From NCBI GenBank assembly GCA_977020255.1, contig CDROCS010002508.1, forward strand, positions 620,001 through 684,000: DNA of 64,000 nucleotides. The letters are read 5' to 3'. This DNA is from Obrimoposthia wandeli (lineage: Eukaryota). The notes below the pieces were generated by a model. That model was not told where the DNA came from. It made no database searches and saw nothing but the letters and a program-made list of their open reading frames with translations. A program made the translations under genes and the position numbers. Position 1 is the first letter of the stretch; every line of letters begins with the position of its first letter. Positions 28,830 through 64,000 of the stretch are shown here, piece after piece.

Positions 28830-30595
28830 TAAATTTATAGTAAACGACAGTAAACTATGAATTACTTTTTATGTAATGAAATATTACAGTATTAACTTAC
28901 AATATATTAAATTGAAAATATGCAAATTATATTATGTTTACAAGTTAATTTATTGATCAAATCATTAAAATTATGATTAATAAGTAAATTACTTGAAGTT
29001 TTGGTTGTAAATTATATTAAAGTAATAACTTACAACATTTTAAACTGAATATATACAACAACAAATAAATATTGTAGTTTACAAGTAAATTAATTGAAGT
29101 TTTTGTTGTAAATTATATTAAAGTAATAACTTACAACATATTAAATTGAAAATATACCAAAATAAATTATGTTTACAAGTCAATTTATTGATCAAATCAT
29201 TAAAATTATGATTAATAAGTAAATTACTTGAAGTTTTGGTTGTAAATTATATTAAAGTAATAACTTACAACATTTTAAACTGAATATATACAACAACAAA
29301 TAAATATTGTAGTTTACAAGTAAATTACTTGAAGTTTTTGTTGTAAATTATATTAAAGTAATACCTTACAACATATTAAATTGAAAATATATCAAAATAA
29401 ATTATGTTTACAAATCAATTTATTGTACAAAACATTAAATTTATGTTTAATAAGTAAACTACTTGAAGTTTTTGTTGAAAATTATATTAAAGTAATAACT
29501 TACAACATATTAAAGTGAATATATGCATAAATATATTATGTTTACAAGTAAATTAATTGAAGTTTTTGTTGTAAATTATATTAAAGTAATAACTTACAAC
29601 ATATTAAATTAAAAATATACCAAAATAAATTATGTTTACAAGTCAATTTATTGATCAAATCATTAAAATTATGATTAATAAGTAAATTACTTGAAGTTTT
29701 GGTTGTAAATTATATTAAAGTAATAACTTACAACATTTTAAACTGAATATATACAACAACAAATAAATATTGTAGTTTACAAGTAAATTACTTGAAGTTT
29801 TTGTTGTAAATTATATTAAAGTAATAACTTACAACATATTAAATTGAAAATATATCAAAATAAATTATGTTTACAAATCAATTTATTGTACAAAACATTA
29901 AATTTATGTTTAATAAGTAAACTACTTGAAGTTTTTGTTGAAAATTATATTAAATTAATAACTTACAACATATTAAAGTGAATATATGCATAAATATATT
30001 ATGTTTACAAGTCAATTTATTGTAAACGATAGTAAACTATCAATTACTTTTTATGTAATGTAATATTATAGTAATAACTTACAATATATTAAATTGAAAA
30101 TATGCAAATTATATTATGTTTACAATTCAATTTATTGAACAAATCATTAAAATTATGATTAATAAGTAAATTACTTGAAGTTTTGGTTGTAAATTATATT
30201 AAAGTAATAACTTACAACATTTTAAACTGAATATATACAACAACAAATAAATATTGTAGTTTACAAGTAAATTAATTGAAGTTTTTGTTGTAAATTATAT
30301 TAAAGTAATAACTTACAACATATTAAATTGAAAATATACCAAAATAAATTATGTTTACAAGTCAATTTATTGTACAAAACATTAAACTTATGTTTAATAA
30401 GTAAACTACTTGAAGTTTTTGTTGAAAATTATATTAAATTAATAACTTACAACATATTAAAGTGAATATATGCATAAATATATTATGTTTACAAGTCAAT
30501 TTATTGTAAACGATAGTAAACTATCAATTACTTTTTATATAATGTAATATTATAGTAATAACTTACAATATATTAAATTGAAAATATGTTAAAAG
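28830..30595. repeat. Very AT-rich higher-order tandem array (subunits of about 70-80 bp)
   Basis: Recurrent ttatgtttacaagt and gaagtttt.gttgtaaattatattaaagtaataacttacaacat blocks. No ORFs. Confidence 0.85.
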
Positions 30596-30631
30596 TCCAA
30601 AAACTTGCAAACAACTTTTATTCAATATATA

Positions 30632-30850
30632 TCAGGATCAATTTAATAATTTTTAAATTTTTTGTAACTGTAAATTTCTCGTTTCGAATAAATCAGGATC
30701 AATTTAATAATTTTTAAATTTTCTGTAACTGTAAATTTCTCGTTTCGAATAAATCAGGATCAATTTAATAATTTTTAAATTTTCTGTAACTGTAAATTTC
30801 TCGTTTCGAATAAATCAGGATCAATTTAATAATTTTTAAATTTTCTGTAA
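30632..30850. repeat. 60-bp tandem repeat, about 3.6 copies, cut by the LTR
   Basis: tcaggatcaatttaataatttttaaattttctgtaactgtaaatttctcgtttcgaataaa three times, plus a partial copy. Confidence 0.9.
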
Positions 30851-30860
30851 GATTGATAAT

Positions 30861-31644
30861 TGTTAATAATAATTTTTGTTACTGAATCAGATTCTCTAAT
30901 ACAAGCTATTTATATCCAATTGGTAAATATCAAAATCCAGTAAGAGACACATGAAATAACAAAAACGCTGCCCACTACTGGAAGCGCGAAATCATGCCCA
31001 CATGCCAATCGATTATAGCGCATCTGGGAATAGGTAGAAAACGATCACACTTGCAAACTGCCCATCTGTCCGCAAGAATCGTATCTGGACAGAGAGGAAA
31101 ATAGATTTGTATAAAATACACACACATACACAAAACTGAGAGTAGGTGAGTGAGTACAGAGAATAAGTGAGTGAGTACAGAGAATAAGTGAGCGATTGAG
31201 TGAGTAGTGAGAGTGAATGAGTGAGTTGAGTGATGTGTTAATGTTGAGTGAGTGTGTGTGTGTGTGAATGGTGCACTTGCGCACACTAACACCACATGTC
31301 GACGATATTCGTCGGCACATGAAAGGGGGAATCTTTCCCTCTTTTCCCTGGCTTTATTATTGTTATCTCTGGCTTCGCGGAATCCACCGCGAAGTTAGAG
31401 ATAACAAACCATCTCCCTGATGAACCCGGCAGGGCGAAACGGGCTTTTTTCCCGTCGGAGATTGATCACTCTTGAGACTAAAATGCCAAAGTGCACAATT
31501 TTAAAAATCGGAACTTTTCCCTAATTAAGGAAAGTTCCCAATTAATTTTTAATTAATTAATTCCCTTTTTTCTTTTATTTCTTTAAAAATTTTATATTTT
31601 TATTTTTCTTTTTTAAAACAATTATTTAATATATTTTCCCAACA
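30861..31644 (-). repeat. 3' LTR (784 bp, TGTT...AACA)
   Basis: The minus strand starts TGTTGGGAA at 31644 after a weak purine tract (GGAGGA) and ends ATTATTAACA at 30861, where the 60-bp repeat is interrupted. The TGTTGGGAA start is shared with the 50086 copy. No partner LTR is available to confirm the boundaries. Confidence 0.65.
31411..31462 (+). ncRNA. Type I hammerhead ribozyme (intact core), antisense to the retroelement
   Basis: Stem I ATCTCC/GGAGAT; core CTGATGA (31417-31423); stem II CCC-GGCA-GGG with an A.C 10.1-11.1 pair; GAAA; stem III ACGGG-CTTTTTT-CCCGT; GTC triplet with predicted cut after 31456. Confidence 0.88.
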
Positions 31645-32000: not shown

Positions 32001-33020
32001 TTATGAAAATTTTTCGGGTGTGATTTGCATCTTTTTAGTGTGGACTCCTTTTTGTGTTTCTATATTTAAGTATTTCCGCACCATGTTGGCGAGTCCAATA
32101 TTTGGGTGATTGTGATTTAGTTCTGATTTTATGCTTTTGGATATTCCTAAATCAACAATGTTGAATAACATCCATTTCTGTAGGCGTAAAGCTTTTAAAT
32201 CATTTGTTAGTCCCACACCTACGATGATGTTTCCATACACAATGTTTTTTACTTCCTCAATTACTTCATCAGCATCTCTACATCCTTGTAACTTTCTATC
32301 CGACAGTCCAGTTATTCTAGTAACGTAATTTCTTACTCTGTCTCTAGTTACGCACAGTGTATCTATAATTACGTTACCTATGTAATTTATAATAGAAACA
32401 CTTGCTAACACTGGCTGTTTATCTACTGATATCACCATTTCGCAATTGAGGAATAAAATTGCTGGTTTCTGTGCGTTTTTTAATTCAAAAAGGGCTATTT
32501 GTTGAGGTTCTTCTGCTTTTCTTATTTTTTCTATAAATAATAGATTTGGTCCTCTTCCTAATTTTATGCTATATTGATTTTCTAATTGAGCTGCTTGTAA
32601 GGTGTAGGTGTGATTTCCTATCATCAGAAAGTTTAATGTCTTATCTGATTTGGTTTTTAAATGGGCTACTCCTAGTACCACGTGAATATCTATTTTTTCA
32701 CAATTAATGTTGGGGAATATTTCACTGAGAGCCATATGGGTTGGTCTTTTTTCATTGGAAAAAATAAGTGCGCTAGTTCTTTCTTCTGTGGTAATTTTTA
32801 ACTTATTAGGAAGAAATGTTTGATTTGAAAACATTTTTCTTCCTCCGTTGTTTCTAAAGTATGCACTGCTAAACTGACGCATCTTTTGATACAAGAATTT
32901 TGCTAAAAACCACCTTTCTGGCATATTTTCCGTTTTTCCTCTTTCTATTTTTGCTGTGCTTTTTGTTTGATCTGACCGAGTGAGCTGGTCTGGAGTCGTA
33001 TCCAGGTGATTGTTATCCAT
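32001..33020 (-). CDS. Retroelement accessory ORF (339 aa) with a C-terminal DEDDh 3'-5' exonuclease domain (REX4/ISG20-like)
   Basis: LNCEMV..., LASVSIINYIGNVIIDT, YVTRITGL, IIVGVGLTNDLKAL and IQ/TQKGVH-type motifs of the REX4/ISG20 family. The first Asp appears as Asn. Confidence 0.75.
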   Translation of the reverse strand: MDNNHLDTTPDQLTRSDQTKSTAKIERGKTENMPERWFLAKFLYQKMRQFSSAYFRNNGGRKMFSNQTFLPNKLKITTEERTSALIFSNEKRPTHMALSEIFPNINCEKIDIHVVLGVAHLKTKSDKTLNFLMIGNHTYTLQAAQLENQYSIKLGRGPNLLFIEKIRKAEEPQQIALFELKNAQKPAILFLNCEMVISVDKQPVLASVSIINYIGNVIIDTLCVTRDRVRNYVTRITGLSDRKLQGCRDADEVIEEVKNIVYGNIIVGVGLTNDLKALRLQKWMLFNIVDLGISKSIKSELNHNHPNIGLANMVRKYLNIETQKGVHTKKMQITPEKFS

Positions 33021-33187
33021 TCTGCTTTAATAGATTTGTTAGTTGAATAAAATAATATAATTATTTCACAGTCTTAAAGTTATAAAAATATCAGTCTTAT
33101 CCATGCAGTATGTGGGATTTGTCATGAAAATAAACTTATTAACAAAAGTTAGACAATTTGTACAAAAGAAGGATGTATGATTATAGT

Positions 33188-33756: not shown

Positions 33757-36700
33757 GTTTTATCCAAAAAGATTTGATTATTGTGTTATATTTCTTTTTC
33801 TATTTTCTATTACAGTATTTATGGATAATTCTGAAGAATTATCATCCTTGGGAATAATATAAATAGTAAAAGGACCTGGGGGCCCACAAAAGTGTTTTCG
33901 TTGTTTTGTTTCTATCCTTTTTGTATGTTTCAAAATTAACATTTTCCATGATATTTGATTTATAAATGTAATTATTTCGATTACTATAACTATTATTATA
34001 AGTTCTTCTTTATTTTCATTCTTTGAATGTTCTTGTTTACTATAGTGCATTTTTAAACTTTCATTAAATGATTTATAGGATATTATTTCTGTTGTTTTTA
34101 ATTTTAATTTAATTCTTATTTTTTCCGTAATTTCAACTTGATTTGTAACTCTGTAAATTTTTGATGTAAATGTTGTGGTATGTAGCAATTGTTTTGTGGT
34201 TATATTTTTAACATATTTCTTAATTTTTACTGTTGACCAACGACCACAAAAAATTGTAGGTTGATATAGTTTGGATATCTTATTTCCTAAAATTGTTAAT
34301 TTTGTTAGATTTTTATAACTTTCAAACTTTTGACTCCATTGTCTGTACATTATTGGTTTATTAGTGATTACGCATTCTCTATTGTCTATTATTATTTTCT
34401 CTGGATATCTTATGTTTTCTATGGTTAAATTTGTTTTAGTTTGTGTATTTTTTAATTGTTTTTCTGAGTCTTTCCAAAAATTAGCATTGTGTCCTCTATA
34501 TCTAATTCTAATGAGGGCTTTATCTAAGTCATCTATTTTTAGTTGAAATTCCCATTTTATCATTATTTTATGTTTTGATATATATTTTGCTGTTGTTTTT
34601 AATATTGATGCTAGGTATATGTGAGTTTCTATAATTCTTTCATAGAGTGTTATATTTTTTAATTTCGACTTAATTCTTATTTTATATTGTGTTTCTGTTC
34701 TTAAAAATGGTATTGTATATTTTTGTGATTTTATTCCTGAAATAACTATATTTTGTTTTCAATCTGTTTGTGTGATTTGCACATTTCCTGTTTTGTTTGT
34801 AAGAAGAGAAATTTTTAACTTTATTGATGTGATTTCAGGTATTATTGTTATTAATCCAAAATTTTTTATGAGATGAGTTGTTGAGTCGAATTTATTTGTT
34901 TGTTGTTGTATGATTGATTGATTGTCATTTATGTTTGTTGCGTTTACTTTCAGTAGGTTATATTTTATTATAAAATATATTATCAATAACATCATTATTT
35001 TACCAATTTCTTTTATTGATATTTTTATTGAATTTCTGGTTTGATGACTCAAAATAGTTTTGTTTTGTTTTTGTGAGTTTTTTATTGTCAACATTTGTAG
35101 AACTGTATTATCATTAGTTGATCTTAAGTTATATTTGTGACTTTTTACTTTTGTATTCTCCTCAGGTATTTCTCGACATCTGTTTATATGTGCTCTTATT
35201 TCTTTTGATTTTGGTTCATTATCTAGTTTAGCTGTTATGTTGGTTCCGTTGGTACTAATGACTGTATATGGTCCTTTGTATGGTTTTGATAATTTGTGAG
35301 ACAATCCTACATTAATTTGTGGATTGTGAATCATCACTTTACTTCCGCTTTTTATATTTGATGGCTTAGTTCTTCTATCATAATATTCTTTGTAATTTTC
35401 TTGTATGTTTTTTACAAATAGTTTAGCTTTTTCGAATGCTAGTTTTATTCTTTCTCTAATTTCTATTTTATATTCAGGTATTTCTAAATATTGTGTAGTA
35501 GGTTGTAGTAATGTTAGGTCAATAGGCATTTGAGGATCTCTGAGGAACATAAGATAAAAAGGTGTTTCTCCTGTGGATGCATGTACTGATGTTCTATATG
35601 CAAAAAGGCATGAGGTATGTGTAAATCCCAATCTGTTTGATTGTTGTTTGTGTATGATGCCATCATATCTTCGAGGGTTCTATTAAATCTTTCTACTAAC
35701 CCGTCAGTTTGAGGGTGATATGGTGTTGTATTGATCTTTTTTATGTGAAAAATTTCAGCTATTGACGCTAATACATTATTTATAAATTCAGGACCTTTGT
35801 CGGTTAATAATTTTCGGGGTGCACCGAAAGTAAAAATAATTTTTTTGACTAAAACCTTCGCGATGGTTTCAGCCTTATGATCATGTGTTGGAAAAGCCTC
35901 TGGCCATCTTGTAAAATAATCAGAAAATACTATTATATATCGATTTCCTCGGGGTGTTTCAGGTAATGGTCCCATTACATCCATGGCAACAGTTTCCATG
36001 GGGGCTGATGGATAAGGTATTGGCTTTAAAGGTATTTTTGTGGTACGTAAAGTATTTTTCCGTTTAAGACATATTTCACATGTTTTATCCAAAAAAGATT
36101 TGATTATTGTGTTATATTTCTTTTTCTATTTTCTATTACAGTATTTATGGATAATTCTGAAGAATTATCATCCTTGGGAATAATATAAATAGTAAAAGGA
36201 CCTGGGGGCCCACAAAAGTGTTTTCGTTGTTTTGTTTCTATCCTTTTTGTATGTTTCAAAATTAACATTTTCCATGATATTTGATTTATAAATGTAATTA
36301 TTTCGATTACTATAACTATTATTATAAGTTCTTCTTTATTTTCATTCTTTGAATGTTCTTGTTTACTATAGTGCATTTTTAAACTTTCATTAAATGATTT
36401 ATAGGATATTATTTCTGTTGTTTTTAATTTTAATTTAATTCTTATTTTTTCCGTAATTTCAACTTGATTTGTAACTCTGTAAATTTTTGATGTAAATGTT
36501 GTGGTATGTAGCAATTGTTTTGTGGTTATATTTTTAACATATTTCTTAATTTTTACTGTTGACCAACGACCACAAAAAATTGTAGGTTGATATAGTTTGG
36601 ATATCTTATTTCCTAAAATTGTTAATTTTGTTAGATTTTTATAACTTTCAAACTTTTGACTCTATTGTCTGTACATTATTGGTTTATTAGTGATTACGCA

Positions 36701-38410
36701 TTCTCTATTGTCTATTATTATTTTCTCTGGATATCTTATGTTTTCTATGGTTAAATTTGTTTTAGTTTGTGTATTTTTTAATTGTTTTTCTGAGTCTTTC
36801 CAAAAATTAGCATTGTGTCCTCTATATCTAATTCTAATGAGGGCTTTATCTAAGTCATCTATTTTTAGTTGAAATTCCCATTTTATCATTATTTTATGTT
36901 TTGATATATATTTTGCTGTTGTTTTTAATATTGATGCTAGGTATATGTGAGTTTCTATAATTCTTTCATAGAGTGTTATATTTTTTAATTTCGACTTAAT
37001 TCTTATTTTATATTGTGTTTCTGTTCTTAAAAATGGTATTGTATATTTTTGTGATTTTATTCCTGAAATAACTATATTTTGTTTTCAATCTGTTTGTGTG
37101 ATTTGCACATTTCCTGTTTTGTTTGTAAGAAGAGAAATTTTTAACTTTATTGATGTGATTTCAGGTATTATTGTTATTAATCCAAAATTTTTTATGAGAT
37201 GAGTTGTTGAGTCGAATTTATTTGTTTGTTGTTGTATGATTGATTGATTGTCATTTATGTTTGTTGCGTTTACTTTCAGTAGGTTATATTTTATTATAAA
37301 ATATATTATCAATAACATCATTATTTTACCAATTTCTTTTATTGATATTTTTATTGAATTTCTGGTTTGATGACTCAAAATAGTTTTGTTTTGTTTTTGT
37401 GAGTTTTTTATTGTCAACATTTGTAGAACTGTATTATCATTAGTTGATCTTAAGTTATATTTGTGACTTTTTACTTTTGTATTCTCCTCAGGTATTTCTC
37501 GACATCTGTTTATATGTGCTCTTATTTCTTTTGATTTTGGTTCATTATCTAGTTTAGCTGTTATGTTGGTTCCGTTGGTACTAATGACTGTATATGGTCC
37601 TTTGTATGGTTTTGATAATTTGTGAGACAATCCTACATTAATTTGTGGATTGTGAATCATCACTTTACTTCCGCTTTTTATATTTGATGGCTTAGTTCTT
37701 CTATCATAATATTCTTTGTAATTTTCTTGTATGTTTTTACAAATAGTTTAGCTTTTTCGAATGCTAGTTTTATTCTTTCTCTAATTTCTATTTTATATTC
37801 AGGTATTTCTAAATATTGTGTAGTAGGTTGTAGTAATGTTAGGTCAATAGGCATTTGAGGATCTCTGAGGAACATAAGATAAAAAGGTGTTTCTCCTGTG
37901 GATGCATGTACTGATGTTCTATATGCAAAAAGGCATGAGGTATGTAAATCCCAATCTGTTTGATTGTTGTTTGTGTATGATGCCATCATATCTTCGAGGG
38001 TTCTATTAAATCTTTCTACTAACCCGTCAGTTTGAGGGTGATATGGTGTTGTATTGATCTTTTTTATGTGAAAAATTTCAGCTATTGACGCTAATACATT
38101 ATTTATAAATTCAGGACCTTTGTCGGTTAATAATTTTCGGGGTGCACCGAAAGTAAAAATAATTTTTTTGACTAAAACCTTCGCGATGGTTTCAGCCTTA
38201 TGATCATGTGTTGGAAAAGCCTCTGGCCATCTTGTAAAATAATCAGAAAATACTATTATATATCGATTTCCTCGGGGTGTTTCAGGTAATGGTCCCATTA
38301 CATCCATGGCAACAGTTTCCATGGGGGCTGATGGATAAGGTATTGGCTTTAAAGGTATTTTTGTGGTACGTAAAGTATTTTTCCGTTTAAGACATATTTC
38401 ACATGTTTTA
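33757..38410. repeat. Direct tandem duplication of about 2325 bp (integrase plus FN3-like ORF)
   Basis: GTTTTA microhomology at 33757, 36082 and 38405. The copies differ only by a few homopolymer/dinucleotide indels and rare substitutions. Confidence 0.92.
33778..34995 (-). CDS. Putative FN3-like type I membrane protein downstream of integrase (one frameshift near 34760); second copy at 36104-37321
   Basis: Signal-like MMLLIIYFIIKYNLLKVNA, YTIPFLRTETQYKIRIKS (FN3 F-strand-like), IMIKWEF...RIRYRG...W, C-terminal hydrophobic ELIIIVIVIEIITFI. Confidence 0.5.
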
Positions 38411-39259
38411 CACCAATTTTTACATCTTCTTTCATGTCAATCCAATAGTATTTTAAATTTAATCGTGAATGTGTCTTTTTTGATGATAAATGTCCTCCTA
38501 GGGCTCCATTATGATATTGAAGAAGTAATTGACACTGAATTTCTTTAGGAATAACTAGTGAATATAGATTTTTGTCATTTAAATAATATAATATTTCATT
38601 ACTATATTTGTATCGTGATTCGTAGATTTTTAAATGTTTTCTTAATTTTTCATCTGTTGGTACTTCGTTTGTGCTAATGTATTTAGTTATTTGCTGAATT
38701 TCATTATCTTTGCTTTGAAGTTTAGTAATTATTTTTTCATCATATTTAGGTTTAATTTTTGGTAAAAAATTTAATTCGATGTCATTTGCAGTTATTTCGT
38801 TTATTTCTTCTCTTATTCGTGATAGACAATCTGCATTAGCGTTAGATTTTCCTTTTCTATATTTTATTTCAATATCATATTTTTGTAAAATCAATGCCCA
38901 TCTCATTAATCTAGATGTTGTATCCTTATGATTTAAAAGCCATTGTAATGGTCTTTGATCTGTGTAAACATAAACCTTTCGACCTAATAAGTAATGTTTA
39001 AAATGTTCCATTGCGAAACAAATAGCTAGGCATTCTCTTTCTATCGTTGAGTAATTCTTTTCATGTTTTTTAAGACCTCTGCTCGCATATGCTATCACAT
39101 GATCTTTTTCGTTATTTTCCTGTTGTCCTAAAACTGCTCCTAACGCATAACCACTGGCGTCAGTCATAACTAAAAATGAGTTATTAAAATTAGGATATCT
39201 AAGTATAGGTTTTTCGATTAGTTTTTGTTTTAAATATTCATAAGATTCTTGTTGTTCTT

Positions 39260-41575
39260 TTACCCATTCAAATTTTTCATCTTTTTAATAAGTTTATTTA
39301 ATGGTATTGCTATTTGTGCGAAATTTCTAATAAATCTTCGATAATATCCTGCAAGCCCTAAAAATTCCTGTATATTTTTTACTGTTTTTGGGATTGGAAA
39401 ATTTTTAATCTTTTCTACATTACTCTCGTCTGGTTGTATTCCTTTTGCTGATACAGCATGTCCTAAGTAATTTACTTTATCTTTTATCCATTCACATTTC
39501 TTTGGTTTTAGTTTTAATCCTGCTACCTGTAATCTTAAGAATACGTTTTCTAAATCTTTTAAATGTTCTTCAAAATTTTTTGAAAAAATAAGAATGTCAT
39601 CGATATATACCATTACGTGATCTGCATCCATTAAAATATGGCTCATACATCTCTGAAATGTTGCTGGAGCTCCGGTTAATCCAAATGGTAAGACATTGAA
39701 TTCATACAATCCTTCTCCTGTTGAGAAAGCTGTTTTATATTTATCTGACTCCTCAATTTCTATTTGCCAGTATCCACTCTGTAAATCTAAAGTTGTAAAT
39801 ACTTGTGCATTTTTTAGTTTGTCTAATATTTCATCAATTCTTGGCAGTGGATAAGTATCTTTGTGAGTGACTTCGTTTAGTTTTCTGTAGTCTACGCAAA
39901 ATCTCAAAGAACCATCTTTCTTTTTAACTAAAACAACAGGTGATGTCCATGCAGAAAAACTTCTTCTAACAATTTCATTTTCTAACATTCCTTTTATTTG
40001 TCTTTGAGCCTCATCTCTGTAGGCATATGGAATTCGGTAGGGTCGTTGTTTTATTGCTGTGTTTGTTGTTAACGGAAGACCATGTTTTATCAAATTTGTT
40101 CGACCTAAATCGTATTCATTTTTAGCAAATATTACATCATATTTCTCCGTTAAAGTTTTAAGTTTTGATTTTTCATAATCATTTAATTTAATATCGTTAA
40201 AATTTATCGTAGGTTTATCTTCTATTTTTTCATTATCTATTAATTCAATATTTTCAATAACACTTATTTTTCCAAGACGTACTCCTTCCTTGAGATGAAT
40301 TTCATTAATGTCTGCATTTAGGATTCTGATTGGTATTGTGTTGTTTTTTATTTTACAAATTATATTTGGCAAAACGTAGTTCAAGGTTTCTTGTTGATAT
40401 TTATAAGGTTCAAATAATACATCTTTTTCTGTGATTATGTTAGTTTCTAGTTGTAACATTGTTTCTGTTCTTGGTTGGAGAATGATATCTCCTTTTATTT
40501 CTAACTCGTATTCATCTTTGGCGTTAGGTCTGTAAATGTCTTTTATTTGATTTTTTTCAAAATCAAAGTGGAAATTATTTCCTAATCTTCTTAATGTATC
40601 TATTCCTATGATCATTTGGCAAGGACAATTTTTCATTATTCTTGTAGGTATTTTTATGAATTTATTTCCTATTTTAAAAAGACAGTCTAATTTTCCTATT
40701 ATATCTACGGGTTGACCGTTTGCTGCTGTGACTTGACTATTTTCCTTAAGAAGAAGTAATTTTTGTTGTGTTTTTAAGAAAGATTCGTCTAAAACTGTTA
40801 CGCTTGATCCTGTGTCAATTAAAGCTTTAAGTTTATATTCGTTAATTTCTACCTTTACATATGGTCGTTTATCGTTATCTTTTTGATTTATTGTATATAT
40901 TGTTGGTGCAGTTGATTTTTGTATAGTTGTTTTATCTATATATTTTTCTAAATCAGGATATTGTGAAGATTCCGTTTTTTCTGTTTCTTTGGTATTTGTA
41001 ATTTTTTGTATATTTGTTTCTCGCATTTCATTTGATAATGTGTTTACTATGTTTTGATGATGATTAAAAATAAGGAATTTTGCCAAAAATGGAAAACATC
41101 CTAAGATTAATTTCCATGTTAATCCTCCAACTTTATAAATATAATATGTTGATAAAATTTGACTTAGAAGAATCTTAAAGCAAATTAGTAGAGCATATAT
41201 TCCAACTAATCCAGAAAATGCTTGTCCAAAAATAAAAAATTTACCCCATATTTTTGACATGGTGTTTTTAGTGGCTTTTATAAAATGATTTGGAGAAAGT
41301 AATAAGTCATAATCGGGACGGCTAATTCCGTCAGGTACTGATCTTTCTATGATTTGTGTTAAAATTCTGGATCTTATTTGTGGAAATAAAATTTCTTTTC
41401 TTAACTTATCTATATCTTCCTGTATATAAATTCCTTTTGTGTTTAATTCGTTATCTGATTGTATATTGATGTCGTTGCTGAGAGTGGTTAATTGTAATTT
41501 TTGTGGTTCTGCGACAATATCTCTTCTTGGAAGTGAAATCCAAATATCTTTTGAAATTTGATAATGAGGTGCCAT
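39260..41575 (-). CDS. Env(gB/chuvirus-like C-terminus)-protease-RT polyprotein segment (771 aa)
   Basis: A single frame contains GIYIQEDIDKLRKEILFP, a TM region FFIFGQAFSGLVGIYALLICFKILL...GGLTWKLILGCF, then DTGS, a dUTPase-like spacer and RT YIDD. The same frame extends upstream to 41740 across one stop (YQCKKV...CTK*LPISYKNNSLFVEPITRI). Confidence 0.85.
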   Translation of the reverse strand: MAPHYQISKDIWISLPRRDIVAEPQKLQLTTLSNDINIQSDNELNTKGIYIQEDIDKLRKEILFPQIRSRILTQIIERSVPDGISRPDYDLLLSPNHFIKATKNTMSKIWGKFFIFGQAFSGLVGIYALLICFKILLSQILSTYYIYKVGGLTWKLILGCFPFLAKFLIFNHHQNIVNTLSNEMRETNIQKITNTKETEKTESSQYPDLEKYIDKTTIQKSTAPTIYTINQKDNDKRPYVKVEINEYKLKALIDTGSSVTVLDESFLKTQQKLLLLKENSQVTAANGQPVDIIGKLDCLFKIGNKFIKIPTRIMKNCPCQMIIGIDTLRRLGNNFHFDFEKNQIKDIYRPNAKDEYELEIKGDIILQPRTETMLQLETNIITEKDVLFEPYKYQQETLNYVLPNIICKIKNNTIPIRILNADINEIHLKEGVRLGKISVIENIELIDNEKIEDKPTINFNDIKLNDYEKSKLKTLTEKYDVIFAKNEYDLGRTNLIKHGLPLTTNTAIKQRPYRIPYAYRDEAQRQIKGMLENEIVRRSFSAWTSPVVLVKKKDGSLRFCVDYRKLNEVTHKDTYPLPRIDEILDKLKNAQVFTTLDLQSGYWQIEIEESDKYKTAFSTGEGLYEFNVLPFGLTGAPATFQRCMSHILMDADHVMVYIDDILIFSKNFEEHLKDLENVFLRLQVAGLKLKPKKCEWIKDKVNYLGHAVSAKGIQPDESNVEKIKNFPIPKTVKNIQEFLGLAGYYRRFIRNFAQIAIPLNKLIKKMKNLNG

Positions 41576-41740
41576 TATGTTTGAGCAGTTTATTTCTTTT
41601 ATGCTAAAAGTGTTAAAAAGTATGATTCTAGTGATTGGTTCTACAAATAATGAATTATTTTTGTAAGAAATTGGTAATTATTTTGTACATTTTTGATGAT
41701 TTCTTATGTTAACTATTACTTTTTTACATTGATAAGTGTA

Positions 41741-42960
41741 AGTAGGTAGAAGGATGGAGTCTAGACCACTTGACCCCCCCCCTAAAGGGTGACATACCAT
41801 AAGGATGACTCGCCACACCATAAGAGTATATGTTGCCTCACCTTCGGTGACCCAACATATACCCTTATGGTATGGCAAGACACCCTTATGGTATGACACC
41901 CTTTAGGAGGAGGCGGGAGGCGGGAGGCGGGGAGGGGAGGGGAGGGGTCAAGTGATCTAGACTCCACCCTTCTTTTGGCTATAATCTATGGTTGTCCATA
42001 ATTCAAAGGGTCAAGTGGTCTAGTCTCCACCCTTCTTTTTGTGATATACCACTATGAAAGGGTCAATTGGCTTAGTCTCCACCCTTCTTTTTGAGATATA
42101 CCACTATGAAAGGGTCAATTGGCTTAGTCTCCACCCTTCTTTTTGAGATATACCACTATGAAAGGGTCAATTGGCTTAGTCTCCACCCTTCTTTTTGAGA
42201 TATACCACTATGAAAGGGTCAATTGGCTTAGTCTCCACCCTTCTTTTTGAGATATACCACTATGAAAGGGTCAATTGGCTTAGTCTCCACCCTTCTTTTT
42301 GAGATATACCACTATGAAAGGGTCAATTGGCTTAGTCTCCACCCTTCTTTTAGTGATCTAGTCTCCACCCTTCATTTAGTGATCTAGTCTCCACCCTTCT
42401 TTTAGTGATCTAGTCTCCACCCTTCTTTTTGAGATATACCACTATGAAAGGATCAAGTGGCTTAGTCTCCACCCTTCTTTTTTTGTGATCTAGTCCATAA
42501 ATTTAGGATAAAGTTCACACTTACCAATTAAGAATGTATGACGTAATCATACACACACTATTCTATGTGAAAATTTAGGCTAAAGTTCTCTCTTATAAGT
42601 TAATGAATGTATTACGTAATCACACACATACTATTTTATGTGAAATTTAGATCAAAGTTTTTCCTAGGCTTTCACATTTATAGAATTATGATAAAATTTC
42701 TTTAAATAACTTCAATTATATATTAAAATAAAAAATAAAATAAGAAAGAAGTCAGAGAATAATACAAAATTAAACACATTTATTATGTAATTTCATAATA
42801 TCATCATCAAACTTAAGTGAATAACATTTACAAAGTAAGAAAGTCCATTCATTATACATTCTTTTCGTTTCAACGACTAAGTTACAACGGAATTAATAGA
42901 AAATTAGTAAAAATATTAATTTATTTGAATATTTGAATGAGAGTTTGAATAAAATGAGAG
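41741..42960 (+). repeat. Internal third copy of the left TIR (diverged; 49-bp subterminal units), truncating the env ORF
   Basis: AGTAGGTAGAAGGATGGAGTCTAGACC at 41741; hairpin loop TTC; GAGATATACCACTATGAAAGGGTCAATTGGCTTAGTCTCCACCCTTC about 6-7 times. Its left flank (AGTGTA) has no matching TSD. Confidence 0.88.
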
Positions 42961-43014
42961 GTAGAATGAATGTAAATGAATAAAATTATGCATGCAAGTA
43001 TGAATGTCATTTAC

Positions 43015-43963
43015 AAGTAAGAGTCTTAGCAAGTGAATGTAATTTTTAAAATAAGAGTGTCGATAGTTTGATTGAATGCAAGTGTAATTTAGACTATAAG
43101 TAAATTAAAATAGAGTTTTTGTTGAATAAATTATAGTTAGATTGAATGCAAGTATGACGAGCAAGTGATTGATAGTATGAATTTCAATACAAGTAAGTGG
43201 GTTTAGCAAGTGAATGTAATTTTAAAAATAATAGTGTCGATAGTTTGATTGAATGCAAGTGTAATTTAGACTATAAGTAAATTAAAATAGAGTTTTTGTT
43301 GAATAAATTATAGTTAGATTGAATGCAAGTATGACGAGCAAGTGATTGATAGTATGAATTTCAATACAAGTAAGTGGGTTTAGCAAGTGAATGTAATTTT
43401 AAAAATAATAGTGTCGATAGTTTGATTGAATGCAAGTGTAATTTAGACTATAAGTAAATTAAAATAGAGTTTTTGTTGAATAAATTATAGTTAGATTGAA
43501 TGCAAGTATGACGAGCAAGTGATTGATAGTATGAATTTCAATACAAGTAAGTGGGTTTAGCAAGTGAATGTAATTTTTAAAATAAGAGTGTCGATAGTTT
43601 GATTGAATGCAAGTGTAATTTAGACTATAAGTAAATTAAAATAGAGTTTTTGTTGAATAAATTATAGTTAGATTGAATGCAAGTATGACGAGCAAGTGAT
43701 TGATAGTATGAATTTCAATACAAGTAAGTGGGTTTAGCAAGTGAATGTAATTTTAAAAATAATAGTGTCGATAGTTTGATTGAATGCAAGTGTAATTTAG
43801 ACTATAAGTAAATTAAAATAGAGTTTTTGTTGAATAAATTATAGTTAGATTGAATGCAAGTATGACGAGCAAGTGATTGATAGTATGAATTTCAATACAA
43901 GTAAGTGGGTTTAGCAAGTGAATGTAATTTTAAAAATAATAGTGTCGATAGTTTGATTGAATG
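43015..43963. repeat. Satellite-like array, 177-bp unit, about 5.5 copies (variant of the 26040 array)
   Basis: The marker ends at 43142, 43319, 43496, 43673 and 43850. Confidence 0.9.
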
Positions 43964-45051
43964 ATCAAATATTCAAATAAATTAATATTTTTACTAATTT
44001 TCTATTAATTCCGTTGTAACTTAGTCGTTGAAACGAAAAGAATGTATAAAGAATGGACTTTCTTACTTTGTAAATGTTATTCACTTAAGTTTGATGATGA
44101 TATTATGAAATTACATAATAAATGTGTTTAATTTTGTATTATTCTCTGACTTCTTTCTTATTTTATTTTTTATTTTAATATATAATTGAAGTTATTTAAA
44201 GAAATTTTATCATAATTCTATAAATGTGAAAGCCTAGGAAAAACTTTGATCTAAATTTCACATAAAATAGTATGTGTGTGATTACGTAATACATTCATTA
44301 ACTTATAAGAGTGAACTTTAGCCTAAATTTTCACATAGAATAGTGTGTGTGTGTTAAAAACCACATTCCTTAACTGATAAGAGTGAACTTTAGCCTTGAT
44401 TTTCACATATAATAGTGTGTGTATGATTACGTCATACATTCCTTAACTTTTAAGTGTGAACTTTCACATGACCTTAATTATACCTTCAAAGTTTCAAGTC
44501 AAAACTGACCTTGACCCTTTGATTTATGGACGACCATAGTGGTATATCAAAGAAGGGTGGAGACTAGATCACTTGACCCTTTGAATTATGGACGATCATA
44601 GTGGTTAGCCAAAAGAAGGGTGGAGACTAGACCACTTGACTCTTTGAATTATGGACGATCATAGTGGTTAGCCAAAAGAAGGGTGGAGACTAGACCACTT
44701 GACCCTTTGAATTATGGACGATCATAGTGGTTAGCCAAAAGAAGGGTGGAGACTAGACCACAAAAAGAAGGGTGGAGACTAGACCACTTGACCCTTTGAA
44801 TTATGGACGACCACAACCCTTTAGTGGTTAGCCAAAAGAAGGGTGTAGACTAGATCACTTGACCCCCTCCCCGTCCCCCCTCCCCCCTAAAGGGTGTCAC
44901 ACCATAAGGGTGTCTTGCCACACCATAAGGGTATATGTTGCCTCGCCATAGGTGAGGCAACATATACTCTTCTGGTGTGGCAAGACATCCTTATGGTGTG
45001 ACACCCTTTAGGGGGGGGTCAAGTGGTCTAGACTCCATCCTTCTACCTACT
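43964..45051 (-). repeat. Right TIR
   Basis: Reverse complement of the left arm; hairpin loop ATA; ends CCTACT followed by the TSD CACAAT. Confidence 0.9.
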
Positions 45052-46240: not shown

Positions 46241-46937
46241 CTTCACATCCTACCCAATGTGCTGAGCTACCTGCTCGATGTACCTTATTGCAGACCGAAC
46301 CCGGAATCATGTATAGGAGCAGGTGGGTGTTCCCAGTCTAATTCACACCATACTCTTAAGGAGGCACATATGTCCTTTAAAACCGTGCATGTGTTTAAGG
46401 AGTGACATTTTGTGTATCTGTGTAAAAATACATACATATTCAAACATTTTCAAATTAAAACATGCATATATTTTTCATCCGAATAAAAGCAATTTACTGG
46501 ATGCGGATGACACAACGGTCAAAGTGGTGAACTGAAATTGAAAGATTAAGGGCAGAGGACATTTGAATTCCATCAAAAACAAGTTCGAGTGGGTACCTGT
46601 GATTCTTTGCCTACCATTTAAGTTAGCTTCTGAAATTAATAAGTCCTCATATTTACAGACTGAACTATACCAACGACACTAAAGCAATATACGAAACTAT
46701 ATTAATATGAATGATATGCAAAAAATTAAAGTACTGTGTTTTTAAAAAAAACACAATCCCCCTTTTCCCCACACAGATCAGAAAATGTATTATGAGCCCT
46801 TTTAAATGTCTCAAGGCTTCCAAACGTTTGAGATTCGAAAGGTCATCTAGCTTCGCTCGGAGAGCCATACGAGCATATGCAGGTCTTTTGGAGCCAAAAA
46901 TTGCAATCCACAATTCTTGATACGACAGTGTTTCAGC

Positions 46938-47084
46938 AGGTTACCCGGCCATTTCTAGCTAGGATTGAATACTCGCTGATACTGCCATTGTAGTGCGCGG
47001 GTGGCCCCGGACATCCAAGGGCATCACAGGCCTGTTATTGCTCCATCTCATTTGGCTAAAAGCCATTGATTCCTCTAAGAAGTC
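46938..47084 (-). rRNA. 18S rRNA fragment (dispersed pseudogene piece)
   Basis: ACTTCTTAGAGG...GAGCAATAACAGGCCTGTGATGCCCTTGGATGTCCGGGGCC...CTACAATGG...GGGTAACC matches the conserved 3' region of 18S, with substitutions. Confidence 0.85.
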
Positions 47085-47114
47085 AGTTTGTGCTACTTAT
47101 CACACAAATACTAT

Positions 47115-47247
47115 NNNNNNNNNNNNNNNNNNNNNNNNNNNNNNNNNNNNNNNNNNNNNNNNNNNNNNNNNNNNNNNNNNNNNNNNNNNNNNNNNNNNNN
47201 NNNNNNNNNNNNNNNNNNNNNNNNNNNNNNNNNNNNNNNNNNNNNNN
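47115..47247. other. Assembly gap (133 N)
   Basis: Run of n. Confidence 1.
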
Positions 47248-50086: not shown

Positions 50087-51004
50087 CATGCAAAACATTT
50101 TAAAGAAATTAATTCTTCTTTACATCTGTGTCAAAAACTTTTATAAGTTAAAATAACTAAAAATATAGGAAAAATAAGCCAATTTTATAATGAATAAAAT
50201 ATTCTAATAATTTAAAATATACTCTTTGATAGATAAAATTAAACAAAATAACATTTAAATAGTTTGCACACATCCAATTATTTTAAAAGCTGTTGGCCAA
50301 AGGAGTTCATTGAACTATTAATCGAATAAATATACTGATTTAAGATTTAAGCACATTCGTATTGTAAATTATGTAAGTTGGTGTACATACGAGTACAACA
50401 TATCATTCTCAACACATTTGGTATATTCAATTATTCTTTTTTTATTGTTCTTAATAAAATGTTACATTACAATGTTATTTTTCAAGCGATTTTTATGTTC
50501 TCATATTTCTGTGAATTTTATTAGTCACATATTTTTATTTCTGTTTATAAAAATAATATTATATTGATATTGATAAACAATGTTAATGTCTATTAAACAT
50601 AAGTCATGCCAATTATGTTATACTAAAAACACTAGAAATTTAGCATAAAATATTTCTCTAACAACAAATATTGAGCATTTAAAATTATACTTACTGGATT
50701 TTTATGATCTTATCAACTTTACGTGTTAAAAAAATATCAAAATATGTATCGAAAAAAAGAAAATACACATAATGATGTAGTGAGAAATAAAATGTTATAA
50801 AAAAAACCTAAACATTTCGAACTGTAAAAGAATTATTTCAGATTTATAATTAAAATATTAAAATGATTTATTAAATTGACGAAATTATATCAACTAAAGA
50901 AATTATAAGTTTTATTAAAATTATATCATGTGAATTTTATTATTTTTCTTTTAAAAAATTAATAAATTTGAATATCTGTTAACTTTTGTTCGAAATAAAT
51001 AACC

Positions 51005-51165
51005 ATGCAATTCATAAAAATAGCAAACTATGATGTATTCGGTTGGAGTGTATCTGGAAACGAAACTACTGTTGTAGTCAAGCAGAAAAATGACCGCTTA
51101 AATGTTGCTTTTGATATAGGCATTTCTCCGCCGGCTGTAGTAAATTGTGGCCATGTTTTAATTAG
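51005..51165 (+). CDS. TM-type tRNase Z-like metallo-beta-lactamase, exon 1. Model: join(51005..51165,51202..51403,51544..51837,59292..59429), 264 aa
   Basis: GWSVSGNET...VAFDIG (TM/plant-type N-terminus). A 36-nt GT-AG intron (51166-51201) is removed to give VLISHGHTDH. Confidence 0.85.
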
Positions 51166-51201
51166 GTATTGCTTTTTAATTTTCATATTCAGCTTATTTA
51201 G

Positions 51202-51403
51202 TCATGGTCATACTGACCATGTAGCCGCTTTGCCATTACACATTCGAAAGAGAAATCTAGTAAAGTCTCCACCTGCTGTATACTATATGCCTCAAGTTCT
51301 AGTTGAGCCAATGAAAGCCGTTTGTAAGGGATTCTCTACCATGGATGAAAATGACACAACCAACGTGGAGTTTATTGGAGTTCGCCCGGGAGATAAATTC
51401 AAG
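51202..51403 (+). CDS. tRNase Z-like exon 2
   Basis: HGHTDH (HxHxDH), PPAVYYMP; GT donor at 51404. Confidence 0.88.
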
Positions 51404-51543
51404 GTTTTCAGATGATTTCGACTAATTTTGCAGATTATTTTGAATAACTCAAATATTTTGAAATTAAACAACATCTTAATACCTTTACCATATTTATTTT
51501 AGTATGGATAATGAGTTATATCGTTTATATAGATTATTTTCAG

Positions 51544-51837
51544 CTCAAAGACAACTGGAACGTGGAAGTGATTGGCACAAAGCACCGGACTAGTGAGAGT
51601 GTGGGCTATCTGCTTTTCAACAGCCGCATCAGCCTCGACAGACCTGAAGTCGCGTATCTGGGCGACACCACATTTTCCATATTCCACCCACAACCGACTC
51701 ATCCGGCTCTGTTGTACTCGCGTCTGCTCATAACCGAGATGACCTTTGTCACTACAGACAGTCGACGTCGGGAATCCTGCGTGCAGCACGGCCACAGCTG
51801 TCTCGCTGACTTCCAAGAAAACCCCGACATCTTTCAA
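51544..51837 (+). CDS. tRNase Z-like exon 3
   Basis: CAG acceptor; KHRTSESVGYL, PEVAYLGDT, ITEMTF (ExT), HGH (HxH); GTTAGT donor at 51838. Confidence 0.85.
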
Positions 51838-52504
51838 GTTAGTCACATTCGCAATCGACAGCTCATCGACCTTTTACCGACACAATTTAAATCCTATACA
51901 GGAATGAACGCGCAAATTGGCGTATAGAGAATTCATCTGTAAGAAAGATATCATGATCAATCGATATTTAAAGAATAACAATGCTGTGCAAGGTTTAAAA
52001 GTAGTTTCCTTAAACGAGGTCCCATTGAGTGTCTGATTTCTTTTTGTATGCTAAAAAACAGCGAAATCTTCAAGAACTCAGAGAAACTATCGCAGATCCA
52101 CTTGTAACTGTTGGCATTGCATTATGTTTGTGGCAGATTGCAGAGGCACATACAACACGAAGGCAAGTAGTTTGAAAACTTGGAATAGATTCTGTTTATG
52201 TTGTTTTGAACTGTTGACGTCTTTACTATTGATGTGTATCATATAAGTTCAATAAGTGGTTGATTACAAAAGAGTGTTTGTTTGAACATGAAGGTCGGGG
52301 GAAACTTTCTTATCACCCTGTAAAAGGTTTGGGATCTGTTTGCATTATTACAAAAGTATGTGAATTCTCAAAATGCGTGTTGTACTTATTGTCTTGTCAA
52401 TTTAAAAAATATATACTAAGATATTTCAAATATGATACAGTAATAAATTATACTTTTTAGTTATAATGTTCTTTATTTTATGATAATGGTTTCTTACTCC
52501 CTTC

Positions 52505-59799: not shown

Positions 59800-62700
59800 C
59801 CATTTTCATCTGTTAATTGAAGCTTCTATGATGTGATTTATATGGTCCTTCATATCTCATATCTTGTTAATTTCTAACGTCAATTTTTACCAAAACATTA
59901 TCATATATTTCAAAATTTCTTAAATTGCCTTTCACTTTCATATGTTCTTTCCAATTCTCAAACTATCACTGCTGTCTGAGGATAAAAAATTATTTTTCTT
60001 CCAAAAAGCAATTTCAGCAGGACTGGTTAATTTACGATTGCATTGTATTGTTCAATGTATATTCAATATTCGGTAGCGCCTCTTCCCAATTTCTGTGAAG
60101 CTTATCTTCTAAACAACATACAATCCAGTCTCTAATTGTTCTAAATTGACGTTCTACATGACCATTGTTTTGATGATGATATGGACTTGAATAATTGATT
60201 GTAAAATTACATTTCTTCGCCAGGTCTAACAATAATTTGGATTCAAAACACTTTCTTATATCCACGTTAATTTTCTTTAGAGCATCAAACTTCAATATTC
60301 ATTTATTTACTAATATATTTATAACAGTATTTTCATCTTGATTTTGAACTGACTCTAATACAATATATTTAGAAAATTGATCTATTGTTGGGGTTTCTAT
60401 TTGAAAGTCTTATTCAAGTAGATTCTCTTCTGGAGGGCCCCAGCGTGAGTTCTGTTGCAATAGGGCTTACAGCTGGATGTGGCCTATTTAGGTTTTGTCT
60501 TACTTAACTTAGTCTCAAGTCTGAAGGCTTTTGTGTTAATGTAGTGCGAGTTGTGTGCAGAAGATACTAAAATGGTTCCCTTATTGTGGTGTGTGGAGGG
60601 ATTTGTGTTTTTCTATTCCTATGTGATTGTTAACCGAAATAACTCTAATCGATCTGTAGAAAAATTCTATATTACTTTACTAACTAAAACGGATTTAACA
60701 AGTTGACAAGTAGGTTATAAATAGAGATGACCCTCTATTAATTTTACGTTCTTTAACCAAATTTACTTAGTTAATTTAAATTGTTCTTTAGTTCCAACTT
60801 TGGTTTCTTCAATATAGGTTCTAAAACTTTTATTTATTTTGAATTAACTTCACCTAATTTACCAGTTCGAATTCCTTCGCCATATCGATTCTAAAAATTA
60901 TGATCTACAACTTTTTATAACAGGTCACTTTACAATAACCCTTTTACGATAAACTTTGTAATTATACAAACTGTTATACAAACTTTAGGATAATTTCTTA
61001 ATTACACAAATTATCTCAACTTTTAAGATAAATTGACAATTATTTCAACTTTTAAGATAATTCACAATTATTTCAACTGTTATATAATTCACAATTCTTT
61101 CAACTTTTAAGATAGTTCACAATTATTCCAACTTTAAGATAAATTCACAATTTAACTTTCTCTAAGTTATCTAGATACAAAATTCTCACCAAGATGCGTG
61201 TTTGTTTGTCCAGAAAGTGCTTTACGATTATATATGTATGTGCTAGTCCAGAAGATGCTCTACGATTATATCTGTCTCTGCTTGTCCAGAAAGTGCTTTA
61301 CGATTATATCTGTCTCTGCTGATCCGATTGTGATTCAATTGTATTAGATCAATAATTTCTACTAAATCTCAACTCTAGTTTCCGTCTTTTATAAGAAATT
61401 TTACCTACAATAGGATAGATTTCTTTTTACTTCTTGGCCTCCATAAGTGGCCGCTGCAATTGAATGATTTCCCCCTTTGCTGGTTTGAAATTGAACAAAT
61501 TCAAGCTCCCAAGGTCGCGAAAGTCACTGTTCAGGCCACAATCCCGAAGGCACTTAACTCAACGACTCCACTTACCCAATTTAAGTGCTCCTGCCCTACT
61601 CCCAGCACGATCGGAGCCAACTGGAAATCGGCCGGCCCAGCTTCTAGCGCCTCACATCAAGTGCCTCCATCTCGCCCCTCAATGGAAAATAATAAATGGA
61701 CTGCACTTAACTTAACTGCACTTACCACTAGACGGCTGGCTGCTGGCATGTTTCCAGTTGCTGGCAGATAGCCAAGTTCCCAACGATGGTAAATTGATTT
61801 TGTTTTTTTGAAAGTCTTGATAATGGCAATTTTTGATATTTTCGTTTTATTTATTTTTGGGATTATCTTAACTGGCCCTTTTCTGCTTTCTAAAATTTCT
61901 TATATATCTCACAACACACATGACTTCTTAAGGTCCTTAAACTTATTTTAATCTTATTAAACTCAATTTTAAATTAAAAAAATAATTATTTTATTTAACC
62001 TTGCTTTCAGGGTTCTATTTTTCGAAATATATATAATTAATTAATTTTATGAATCCTAAACCTAACACTATTATAACCAAAATATATTTTTTTCATTGAC
62101 TGTAGTCTTGAATGGGCCACAAAAACCTATGTATAAACTTTTGTATGGCTCATTTGTAGATAATGTTTCAAGTTTTTCTATAGTATATCCTGTATAAGTA
62201 TTTATTATCTGACAAATCGTTCATGATTTAACTATACTTTTGGTCATATTTTCCAAATCATTCATATAAAAACTATTTTAATCTGACTTAATACTTTCTT
62301 TCTGCCAGCATGACATAAATCTTTGTGAAACTGTCCAACAAAAGCTGACCTCTCTTCTAAAGGGATGTAAATTTTCCCACTACGATAGATAATATCAGAA
62401 TTAATACTGAATTCACAGTTTTCATTATTGTCAATCTGATTTCTGATATAAAATATATCTTGAAAACTTTTGTAATTCGTAAATTTTTGATTGTTATGAT
62501 ATAACTAAAATTTTCGAAATCAACTTTTCTGTCTTTGGATCTATATGCGTAAAATTACATTGTTTACATGTGTCAATATTCATCCATGACAGAGCATCAA
62601 CATTTCTATGCAAGTCTCCTTTTCTATATTCTAACTTAATATCAAGACTACTCAAGAAGTTCATTCAATTTTGAAATTGTGATGTAATCGGCACTTTTGT

Positions 62701-64000
62701 TGTCATCATGAATGTAATTATGATTAATTATCCGTTCTCAGAATAAACTTTTTCCAATACAAATCATGTTTAAAGTGCTGAGTAACATGAAATACTGATA
62801 AAAGTTCCTATACAATAACCAATTTCTTGTTTACTCATACTCTTCGATCCATACGCAATGACTCTTTCATTGCCATTTTCATCTAACTGCGATAAAACTG
62901 CTCCAATTGTGACGAAACTGGCATCTGTATCTACGATAAATTATTCTTAAAATTAGGATGAGCTAAAATTGAAGATTTTAACATTTGCAGTTTCAAATTC
63001 TCAAAAGCATTTTTACATTGCTCGTTCCATATCAATGTTTTCTTTGTTGTGGTAGTCAAACTTTCTAAAAGCTTGGAGAATCGCGAATAATTTTTGATGA
63101 ATTTTTTATAATAATTCATAAAACCCAAAGTGCTTCGTAAGTGTTTTACACATGATGGTTTCTTGAATTAAACTAATGACTTTATTTTTTCCTGATCAGT
63201 TTTTATTCCTTCTTCATTTATAATGTGTCCAAGAAACTTCAAATCATCAATACAAAATTTACATTTTTCTGGATTAATCCTAAGTCCCTCTGCTCATCGT
63301 CCAAATAATTTTCACAATCTTATTTTATGTTCTTCTATAGAATTAGTAAATATTAAAATAGCATCTAAATATACTAAAGCTTCAGTCCAAATTATATTTT
63401 TAAGATAATTGTCATAAATTTTTGAAATGTTGAAGGAGCTGCTGTAATTTTGAAAGGCATTCTATTGAAGCATGTGTCCAAACTTCTTAGATAAAACTGT
63501 TTTCTGTTTACTTTCTTCATCTAATTCAACTTGATAATAAGCACTTTCTAAGTCTATTGATGAAAAGTATTTTGGGCCATAATGTGCATCAAGCATTTCT
63601 TCAACATTAGGAATTGGGAAAACAGGTTTTACGGTATTTTTCTTCAATAATCTGAAATCTAAGCACATTCTAATATCTGTTGTTTTTTTCTTTTTTACGC
63701 ATACTATTGGTGAATTCCACAGTGATTCACATTTGGATATTTTTCCATTTTCATTAAGATTTTCAACTCTTTCCAGATTCTTCGTTTCATAGTGCATTGG
63801 TTGTCGACGAGGTTTGATATTTATTGGAGTACATTCAGTCAATATTCTATGTTTTAGTACCTCGGTTTTTCCTATATCCCATTTATTTTTCATAAATATA
63901 TTTCTAAATTCTTTACAAATTGGTACGACTTTCTTCATATTTACGGAACACGATTTCAAAAATGTTTTCCAACGATCATCTTGACTTACTGACAAACCAA
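59800..64000 (-). mobile_element. Second, decayed Ty3/Gypsy pol (RT-RH-IN), interrupted by a solo LTR and running off the right edge
   Basis: WNSPIVCVKKK, MCLDFR, FSSIDLESAYYQV, VYLDAIL (YLDD broken), DTDAS...IGAVLSQ, IDQFSKY, PYHHQNNGHVER, GPY. Confidence 0.88.
60386..62067. mobile_element. 1682-bp solo LTR inserted in the integrase
   Basis: TGTT...AACA ends and a 4-bp TSD CTAT (60382-60385, 62068-62071). Removing it restores LVIIDQFSKY. Internal repeats of about 28 bp (61000-61160) and about 40 bp (61190-61330). Confidence 0.85.

Follow-up and report, generated by a model that had tools for sequence, protein, structure and literature searches.

Several LTR retroelements that carry an env have been described. 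Burro (GYPSM1), an element of dugesiid planarians, encodes one polyprotein with CCHC knuckles, in which an env matching mononegavirus fusion glycoproteins stands in frame between gag and protease (Arkhipova & Yushenova 2019, PMC6431247); RNAi against smedwi-2 raises BURRO1 RNA in Schmidtea (PMC8532177). GAG-ENV-POL elements with a gB-type ENV are known from Platyhelminthes, Bryozoa and Nematoda, those of different phyla not being monophyletic, and include six from Schmidtea (Chary & Hayashi, eLife, PMC13524379). These 'ancient errantiviruses', among them Smed_errantivirus_1-6, combine a Ty3/gypsy pol with a gB-type env between gag and pol and are multicopy (45 copies of Smed 1, 215 of Smed 2). 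ENV also precedes POL in the nematode non-canonical endogenous retroviruses cited in PMC13524379. The same glycoprotein superfamily was captured by Anakin and other mosquito BEL-Pao elements (Dezordi et al. 2020, PMC7642597; PMC13524379).

The element described here resembles Burro in encoding a single polyprotein whose env is placed in frame between gag and pol. With the Smed errantiviruses it shares a Ty3/gypsy pol, a gB-type env in that position, many copies and, as is likely here, a flatworm host. The novelty that the first-pass annotation implied for env upstream of pol in one frame is not supported, as that layout is published for Burro (PMC6431247) and for GAG-ENV-POL elements (PMC13524379); with flatworm and nematode precedents, ours is a good new example and not a new kind. 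A 44-residue Env stretch of Smed_errantivirus_2 is 24/44 identical to ours, as counted by eye, and the Smed 1-4 regions of 14.5-14.9 kb include 3-kb flanks and would therefore hold ~8.5-8.9 kb of coding DNA, compared with 8.67 kb here. PMC13524379 assigns no primer tRNA to the Smed elements, whereas it is tRNA-Trp in our element. Nothing in the available text of that paper addresses the continuity of the frame, processing by signal peptidase, a membrane cassette behind integrase or an ORF for an exonuclease, and the terms 'signal peptidase', 'fibronectin' and 'Burro' have no occurrences in it. Burro exceeds 30 kb and encodes 4,873-5,140 aa, in contrast to 13.9-15.0 kb and 2,889 codons here; no Pfam match to its cargo (Bcl-2, BIR, RING, MATH, ankyrin) was found in the parts of our element scanned, and a separate exonuclease ORF is a feature of our element, unlike Burro. 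Anakin has a BEL/Pao pol with env after integrase, whereas here RT is nearest Ty3 and env precedes protease. The nematode elements have nematode hosts, unlike the likely flatworm host here. They are said, in work by Sacco et al. from 2022, to have a continuous gag-env-pro-pol frame.

The window, i.e. the whole 64,000-nucleotide stretch of DNA analysed, contains a broken Ty3/gypsy LTR retroelement of which the 3' two-thirds remain. The first-pass annotation had proposed a chuvirus-like, class III (gB-type) glycoprotein fused in frame upstream of protease and RT. All of the motifs it listed were found at 41021-41740 (-), but the segment is not unbroken: an in-frame stop at 41678-41680, between 'YQCKKV...C' and 'LPI', had been overlooked. 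Between 39260 and 41677 (-) env, protease and RT share an open frame of 805 codons, in which Pfam places PF24664 (Monjiviricetes_fusion) at residues 1-245 (E 8.7e-38 to 9e-37, 130 bits against a cut-off of 27), an aspartic protease at residues 274-364 and RT at residues 584-741. The stretch 41021-41740 (-) corresponds to the C-terminal third of a chuvirus-like class III glycoprotein.

Along the minus strand, the C-terminal part of the gB/chuvirus-type Env ectodomain (41228-41740, PF24664, 5'-truncated at 41741) is followed by a predicted single-pass transmembrane (TM) helix (41153-41227; from hydropathy, and one long helix in the structural model), by a second hydrophobic stretch predicted by the model to be a membrane-apposed helix-turn-helix and not a second pass (41063-41128), and by a cytoplasmic tail or linker in open frame leading to protease (40859-41062). 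The aspartic protease (40586-40858, PF13975 E 1e-8) carries DTGS at ~40805-40816, and the RT core (39455-39928, RVT_1 E 2e-39) carries YIDD. RNase H (38877-39191) and the integrase zinc finger and core (38035-38552), both identified by Pfam, lie downstream of RT in shifted frames in this copy. Beyond them are a post-integrase cassette (36107-37321) of signal-like stretch, ~310-aa beta-rich domain, TM helix and short tail, here broken by stops; ORF2 (32001-33026), an ISG20/REXO4-like DEDD 3'-5' exonuclease by its RNase_T and ISG20L2 matches, here damaged and ending early; and the 3' LTR (30587-31644), which has TG...CA ends and internal tandem repeats and is preceded by a purine-rich tract. This copy is unable to make the full polyprotein. 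Its env stop recurs at the same position in one other copy on another contig (L016), which implies that defective templates are able to spread and that Env is not required in cis on every occasion.

Retroelement homology stops at 41740, where a long inverted-repeat element starts (41741-45051), with arms of ~1.2 kb and a tandem core of 177 bp. Its left end interrupts env; it is not part of the retroelement, and we take it to be Polinton-like from its end features alone. The same six bases, CACAAT, flank both a Polinton-like left end at 24760 and the right end (45051), whereas no duplication accompanies the inner left end (41741), and the retroelement fragment sits inside the unit 24760-45051. 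Recombination between the right ends of a nested and an outer Polinton-like copy would explain the lost 5' half. The segment 36082-38410, from integrase to cassette, is followed by a 99.8% identical tandem duplicate (33757-36087, -); this 2.3-kb duplication (33757-38410) is absent from the other copies compared and is either a local event or an assembly artefact. Elsewhere, the window contains a second, decayed gypsy pol (60071-63998, -; 29% identical), a stretch at ~46780-47115 that by eye resembles a divergent 18S rRNA fragment and adjoins a masked stretch, and metallo-beta-lactamase-like exons with an HxHxDH motif recognised by eye (50999-51927, +).

Searches of the same genome placed this fragment in a large family. 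The env-protease junction was spanned in 40/40 scored DNA matches at 99-100%, and a protein search yielded at least 150 copies with 98-100% amino acid identity (150/150 scored matches, so that the count is a lower bound). Eighteen regions were examined, and in 11 of them both ends of the element were recovered, giving a length of 13.9-15.0 kb with LTRs of 1.0-1.6 kb; substitutions between paired LTRs amounted to 0-0.7%, and a 4-bp target duplication was present in 10/11. All 18 regions had a primer site complementary to host tRNA-Trp(CCA). A tandem array of tRNA-Trp(CCA) with a 207-bp period on contig C5734 (143,000-151,000; L096) is the likely source of the primer; ARAGORN reported six tRNA-Trp genes in it, and no tRNA in 3/3 scattered loci. 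The family is young and high-copy, the product of a recent burst.

One natural copy reads without interruption for 2,889 codons up to the last TM segment. Its order is gag, a basic stretch, a signal-like stretch, the Env ectodomain and TM, then protease, RT, RNase H and integrase, and finally a second membrane cassette of a signal-like stretch, ~310 residues and a TM segment. This full copy locates gag, whose position the first-pass annotation had left to be recovered, upstream of env and in the same frame, and together with the order of Pfam domains it bears out the proposed order env-PR-RT-RH-IN in one frame. Gag has three CCHC-type knuckles (by eye) and weak but concordant matches to Retrotrans_gag (E 4.2e-5, at the cut-off) and to the Arc2 capsid (E 5e-4). 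The pol order PR-RT-RH-IN is that of Ty3/gypsy, and in a ranking by similarity the best PDB match of RT was Ty3 RT (E 2.8e-74), followed by an entry at E 8e-46 and foamy RT at E 5e-41. LTRs, target duplication, primer site, pol order, RT similarity and capsid place the element in Ty3/gypsy (Metaviridae).

The continuity of the frame was scored across junctions in 29 copies, four of which had been chosen for their long frames. The TM-to-tail stretch was open in 28/29 and tail-to-protease in 22/29, and integrase continued in frame into the cassette in 13 of the 14 copies covering that junction. The gag-env junction was open in 13/27 scored copies and shifted by 1-2 bases in the other 14. In a control stretch inside the ectodomain, 12 of 24 copies were open, 11 shifted and one had a stop, which argues that scattered one-base shifts in A runs are background. 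As the shifts at the gag-env junction occur at differing places and the ectodomain stretch is equally often shifted, we read them as homopolymer error, although a minority true frameshift at this junction is possible. In four sequencing runs, their type unrecorded, only a minority of the depth at the junction (13-26%) had lost a single base. Env was covered no less deeply than gag or pol, and no joint skipping env was among the 15 listed out of 32. The even depth and the lack of an env-skipping joint argue that env-less reverse-transcribed copies are not common.

An Env model built with a 75-sequence alignment had a mean pLDDT of 90. Foldseek against PDB listed only herpesvirus gB (best E 6e-13, TM-score ~0.4), and the best match in BFVD was a chu-like G (E 2e-43), which, with the PF24664 profile, upholds the class III, gB-type and chuvirus-like identity originally proposed. 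A sequence search of PDB with the Env profile returned weak gB matches only (best E 0.02). As modelled, Env is a gB-type class III fold with signal and TM. In 13/13 sequences listed, a hydrophobic stretch with a small last residue precedes an Env start of the form x-x-(A/G)-(Y/F)-D-C; a hydrophobic stretch closing on a small residue is the pattern of a signal-peptidase site. After one long TM helix, which is conserved in fused and stand-alone glycoproteins, the model has two short helices, 7 and 10 residues long, that are interrupted by Pro. With a hydropathy of 1.69, the second hydrophobic stretch could be a second membrane pass; as it forms short helices and is also present in stand-alone glycoproteins with short tails, we favour a single TM pass, which would leave Pol in the cytosol.

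Selection on Env is purifying and as strong as on RT. Variants common to at least two of 16 copies were 3 non-synonymous and 20 synonymous in the Env ectodomain and 1 and 10 in RT/RH, counts that are not independent given the mosaic nature of the copies; against diverged subfamilies, pN/pS was 0.08 for Env and 0.06 for RT. The post-integrase domain showed 20 non-synonymous and 6 synonymous shared variants compared with 7 and 38 in the core (Fisher p 4e-7 over the same 16 mosaic copies). The resulting cassette ratio of ~0.8 is compatible with relaxed and with diversifying selection alike.

Among the 1.84 billion representatives searched, there were 1,358 matches at E 0.001. Env is followed by protease in one protein in 12/19 relatives scanned, five of the 12 also containing RT/RH, and the env-protease frame is kept in relatives at 26-49% identity. 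In a FastTree phylogeny of a 248-column Env core, 14 fused Envs formed one clade (support 1.0) apart from 36 stand-alone proteins. Our Env groups with the fused retroelement Envs and lies within LTR-bounded copies, and on both grounds a non-retroviral chuvirus insert was rejected.

Some relatives carry further domains. In P0001, P0002, P0010 and P0019 a Bcl-2-like domain stands directly before the Env signal (Pfam E 0.001-0.05, all below cut-off), and the Env signal could there double as the membrane anchor of that domain. A Bcl-2 remnant between gag and env of our element was considered and rejected, as neither Pfam nor a profile of these four relatives gave a match. Two or three protease domains follow Env in P0003, P0004, P0005, P0013 and P0151. 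The same genome also contains a 23-kb Burro-like family (contig C76, ~450,000-473,000, L062-L064; also C6390 and C2337), with frames of 5,301 codons (one internal stop) and 4,335 codons. Its order is gag, a Bcl-2-like stretch (by alignment to P0001), gB Env, protease, BIR, RING, a second protease, RT, RH, IN, a dual-specificity phosphatase and several TM segments. The Env of this family is sister to that of our element (support 0.91), and its phosphatase is not among the Burro features in the available text of PMC6431247.

The host is likely a rhabditophoran flatworm, judging from the code and divergence of cox1. In the dominant animal cox1, AAA stands for Asn, ATA for Ile and AGR for Ser (mitochondrial code 9), a code that echinoderms also use, and a contig with a copy of the element bears an 87% match to this cox1. 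The assembly is mixed: bacterial-type cox1 genes are numerous in it, and a second animal mitochondrial cox1 uses code 5.

Relatives P0003, P0006, P0014 and P0151 likewise end, beyond integrase, in cassettes of a signal-like stretch plus TM. For the cassette of our element, Pfam gave nothing above noise (fn3 at E 0.3), a homologue search found none at E 1, pairwise similarity to the relatives' cassettes was not significant, and the structural model (pLDDT 37) had no Foldseek match at E 0.001; a search of the P0006 cassette against the genome of our element gave nothing useful. The top named Atlas matches of our cassette were FN3 (0.88-0.89, below the tool's own bar), and the same held for P0006. 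An FN3 fold is a weak lead. The separate ORF2, 391 codons long in other copies and located before the 3' LTR, matched RNase_T at E 1.3e-7 and ISG20/ISG20L2 at E 1e-8 to 4e-8. The gypsy-like LTR elements Juno and Vesta of bdelloid rotifers likewise have a separate DEDD exonuclease ORF after pol; their ORF3 is RNase D-like (DEDDy) and replaces env, whereas ours is ISG20/REXO4-like and coexists with env (Rodriguez et al. 2017, PMC5408684). A literature search, with subscription papers, Repbase and Grohme 2018 outside its scope, found no account of a post-integrase cassette, signal-peptidase processing or an ISG20-like ORF in such elements.

We consider it fairly probable that this one-frame gag-env-pol-cassette element is processed at the ER membrane, with signal peptidase freeing Gag, Pol starting on the Env tail and the element's protease freeing Pol. 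Host signal peptidase would cut Gag from Env co-translationally at the Env signal, and Gag, anchored through the Env signal sequence, would remain on the cytosolic side. The ectodomain would enter the ER lumen and a single TM pass would bring the chain back to the cytosol, where Pol would begin on the Env cytoplasmic tail; on the predicted topology such tethering is reasonable. Trimers of Env may gather protease copies at the budding site and so activate the protease, which would probably release Pol, and Env clustering could bring Pol to the capsid with no need of a Gag-Pol frameshift. Beyond integrase, a second signal would direct a further glycoprotein into the lumen, and enveloped particles may carry the element between cells.

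Packaging of Pol as Gag-Pol is the rule in all well-studied gypsy elements and in most retroviruses, and internal signal sequences can be used inefficiently. Functional Pol might accordingly come from a minor Gag-Pol route, with env spliced out or the internal signal skipped and Env-tail Pol a by-product, and the gag-env junction is indeed shifted in 14/27 copies; however, relatives at 26-49% identity keep the env-protease frame, and the even env depth and the 15 of 32 joints listed, none of which skips env, point the other way, albeit from DNA and not RNA. We regard this route as rather unlikely. Somewhat less probable still is a non-infectious Env that acts as a membrane scaffold co-locating Gag and Pol at the ER, in an element moving within cells only. 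When everything is made as one polyprotein, Pol depends on an Env that keeps the frame and folds, and this alone would remove stops, but the amino acid constraint across the whole ectodomain equals that of RT and exceeds what frame-keeping needs, the same-frame post-integrase cassette is far less constrained (20/6), and the model retains the full class III fold. The fusion of env to protease could in principle have arisen locally, by a rearrangement or an assembly error that put a chuvirus-derived insert next to a gypsy pol, given that the window copy is rearranged (the cut at 41741, the 2.3-kb tandem duplication, several stops and shifts). That reading is refuted and scarcely credible: the junction recurs in 40/40 DNA and at least 150 protein matches on separate contigs, in copies that have LTRs and target duplications, and in public assemblies unrelated to this one.

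The architecture as such was known already; the literature searched contained no description of the post-integrase cassette or of the ISG20-like ORF. The element is compact (14 kb) and very young, and its copy number of at least 150 allows good statistics. Constraint on Env equal to that on RT speaks for a working fusogen. The cassette, which recurs in relatives and changes fast, is a possible second surface protein; if it is FN3-like, a fast-changing second glycoprotein beside the conserved gB may be an attachment protein or a host-receptor decoy, and the ISG20-like nuclease might blunt RNA defence. At its fullest, the proposal would make these elements enveloped reverse-transcribing viruses with a flavivirus-like polyprotein threaded through the ER and cut by signal peptidase, Pol delivered on the fusogen tail, an FN3-like second glycoprotein and an ISG20-like nuclease against RNA defence, a combination we put forward as speculative and doubtful as a whole. 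How Pol is packaged once Gag has been cut off at the ER is apparently unexamined in the available text of the literature on such elements. Foamy viruses make a separate Pol, and delivery of Pol on the Env tail, if true, would be a third route beside theirs and Gag-Pol fusion.
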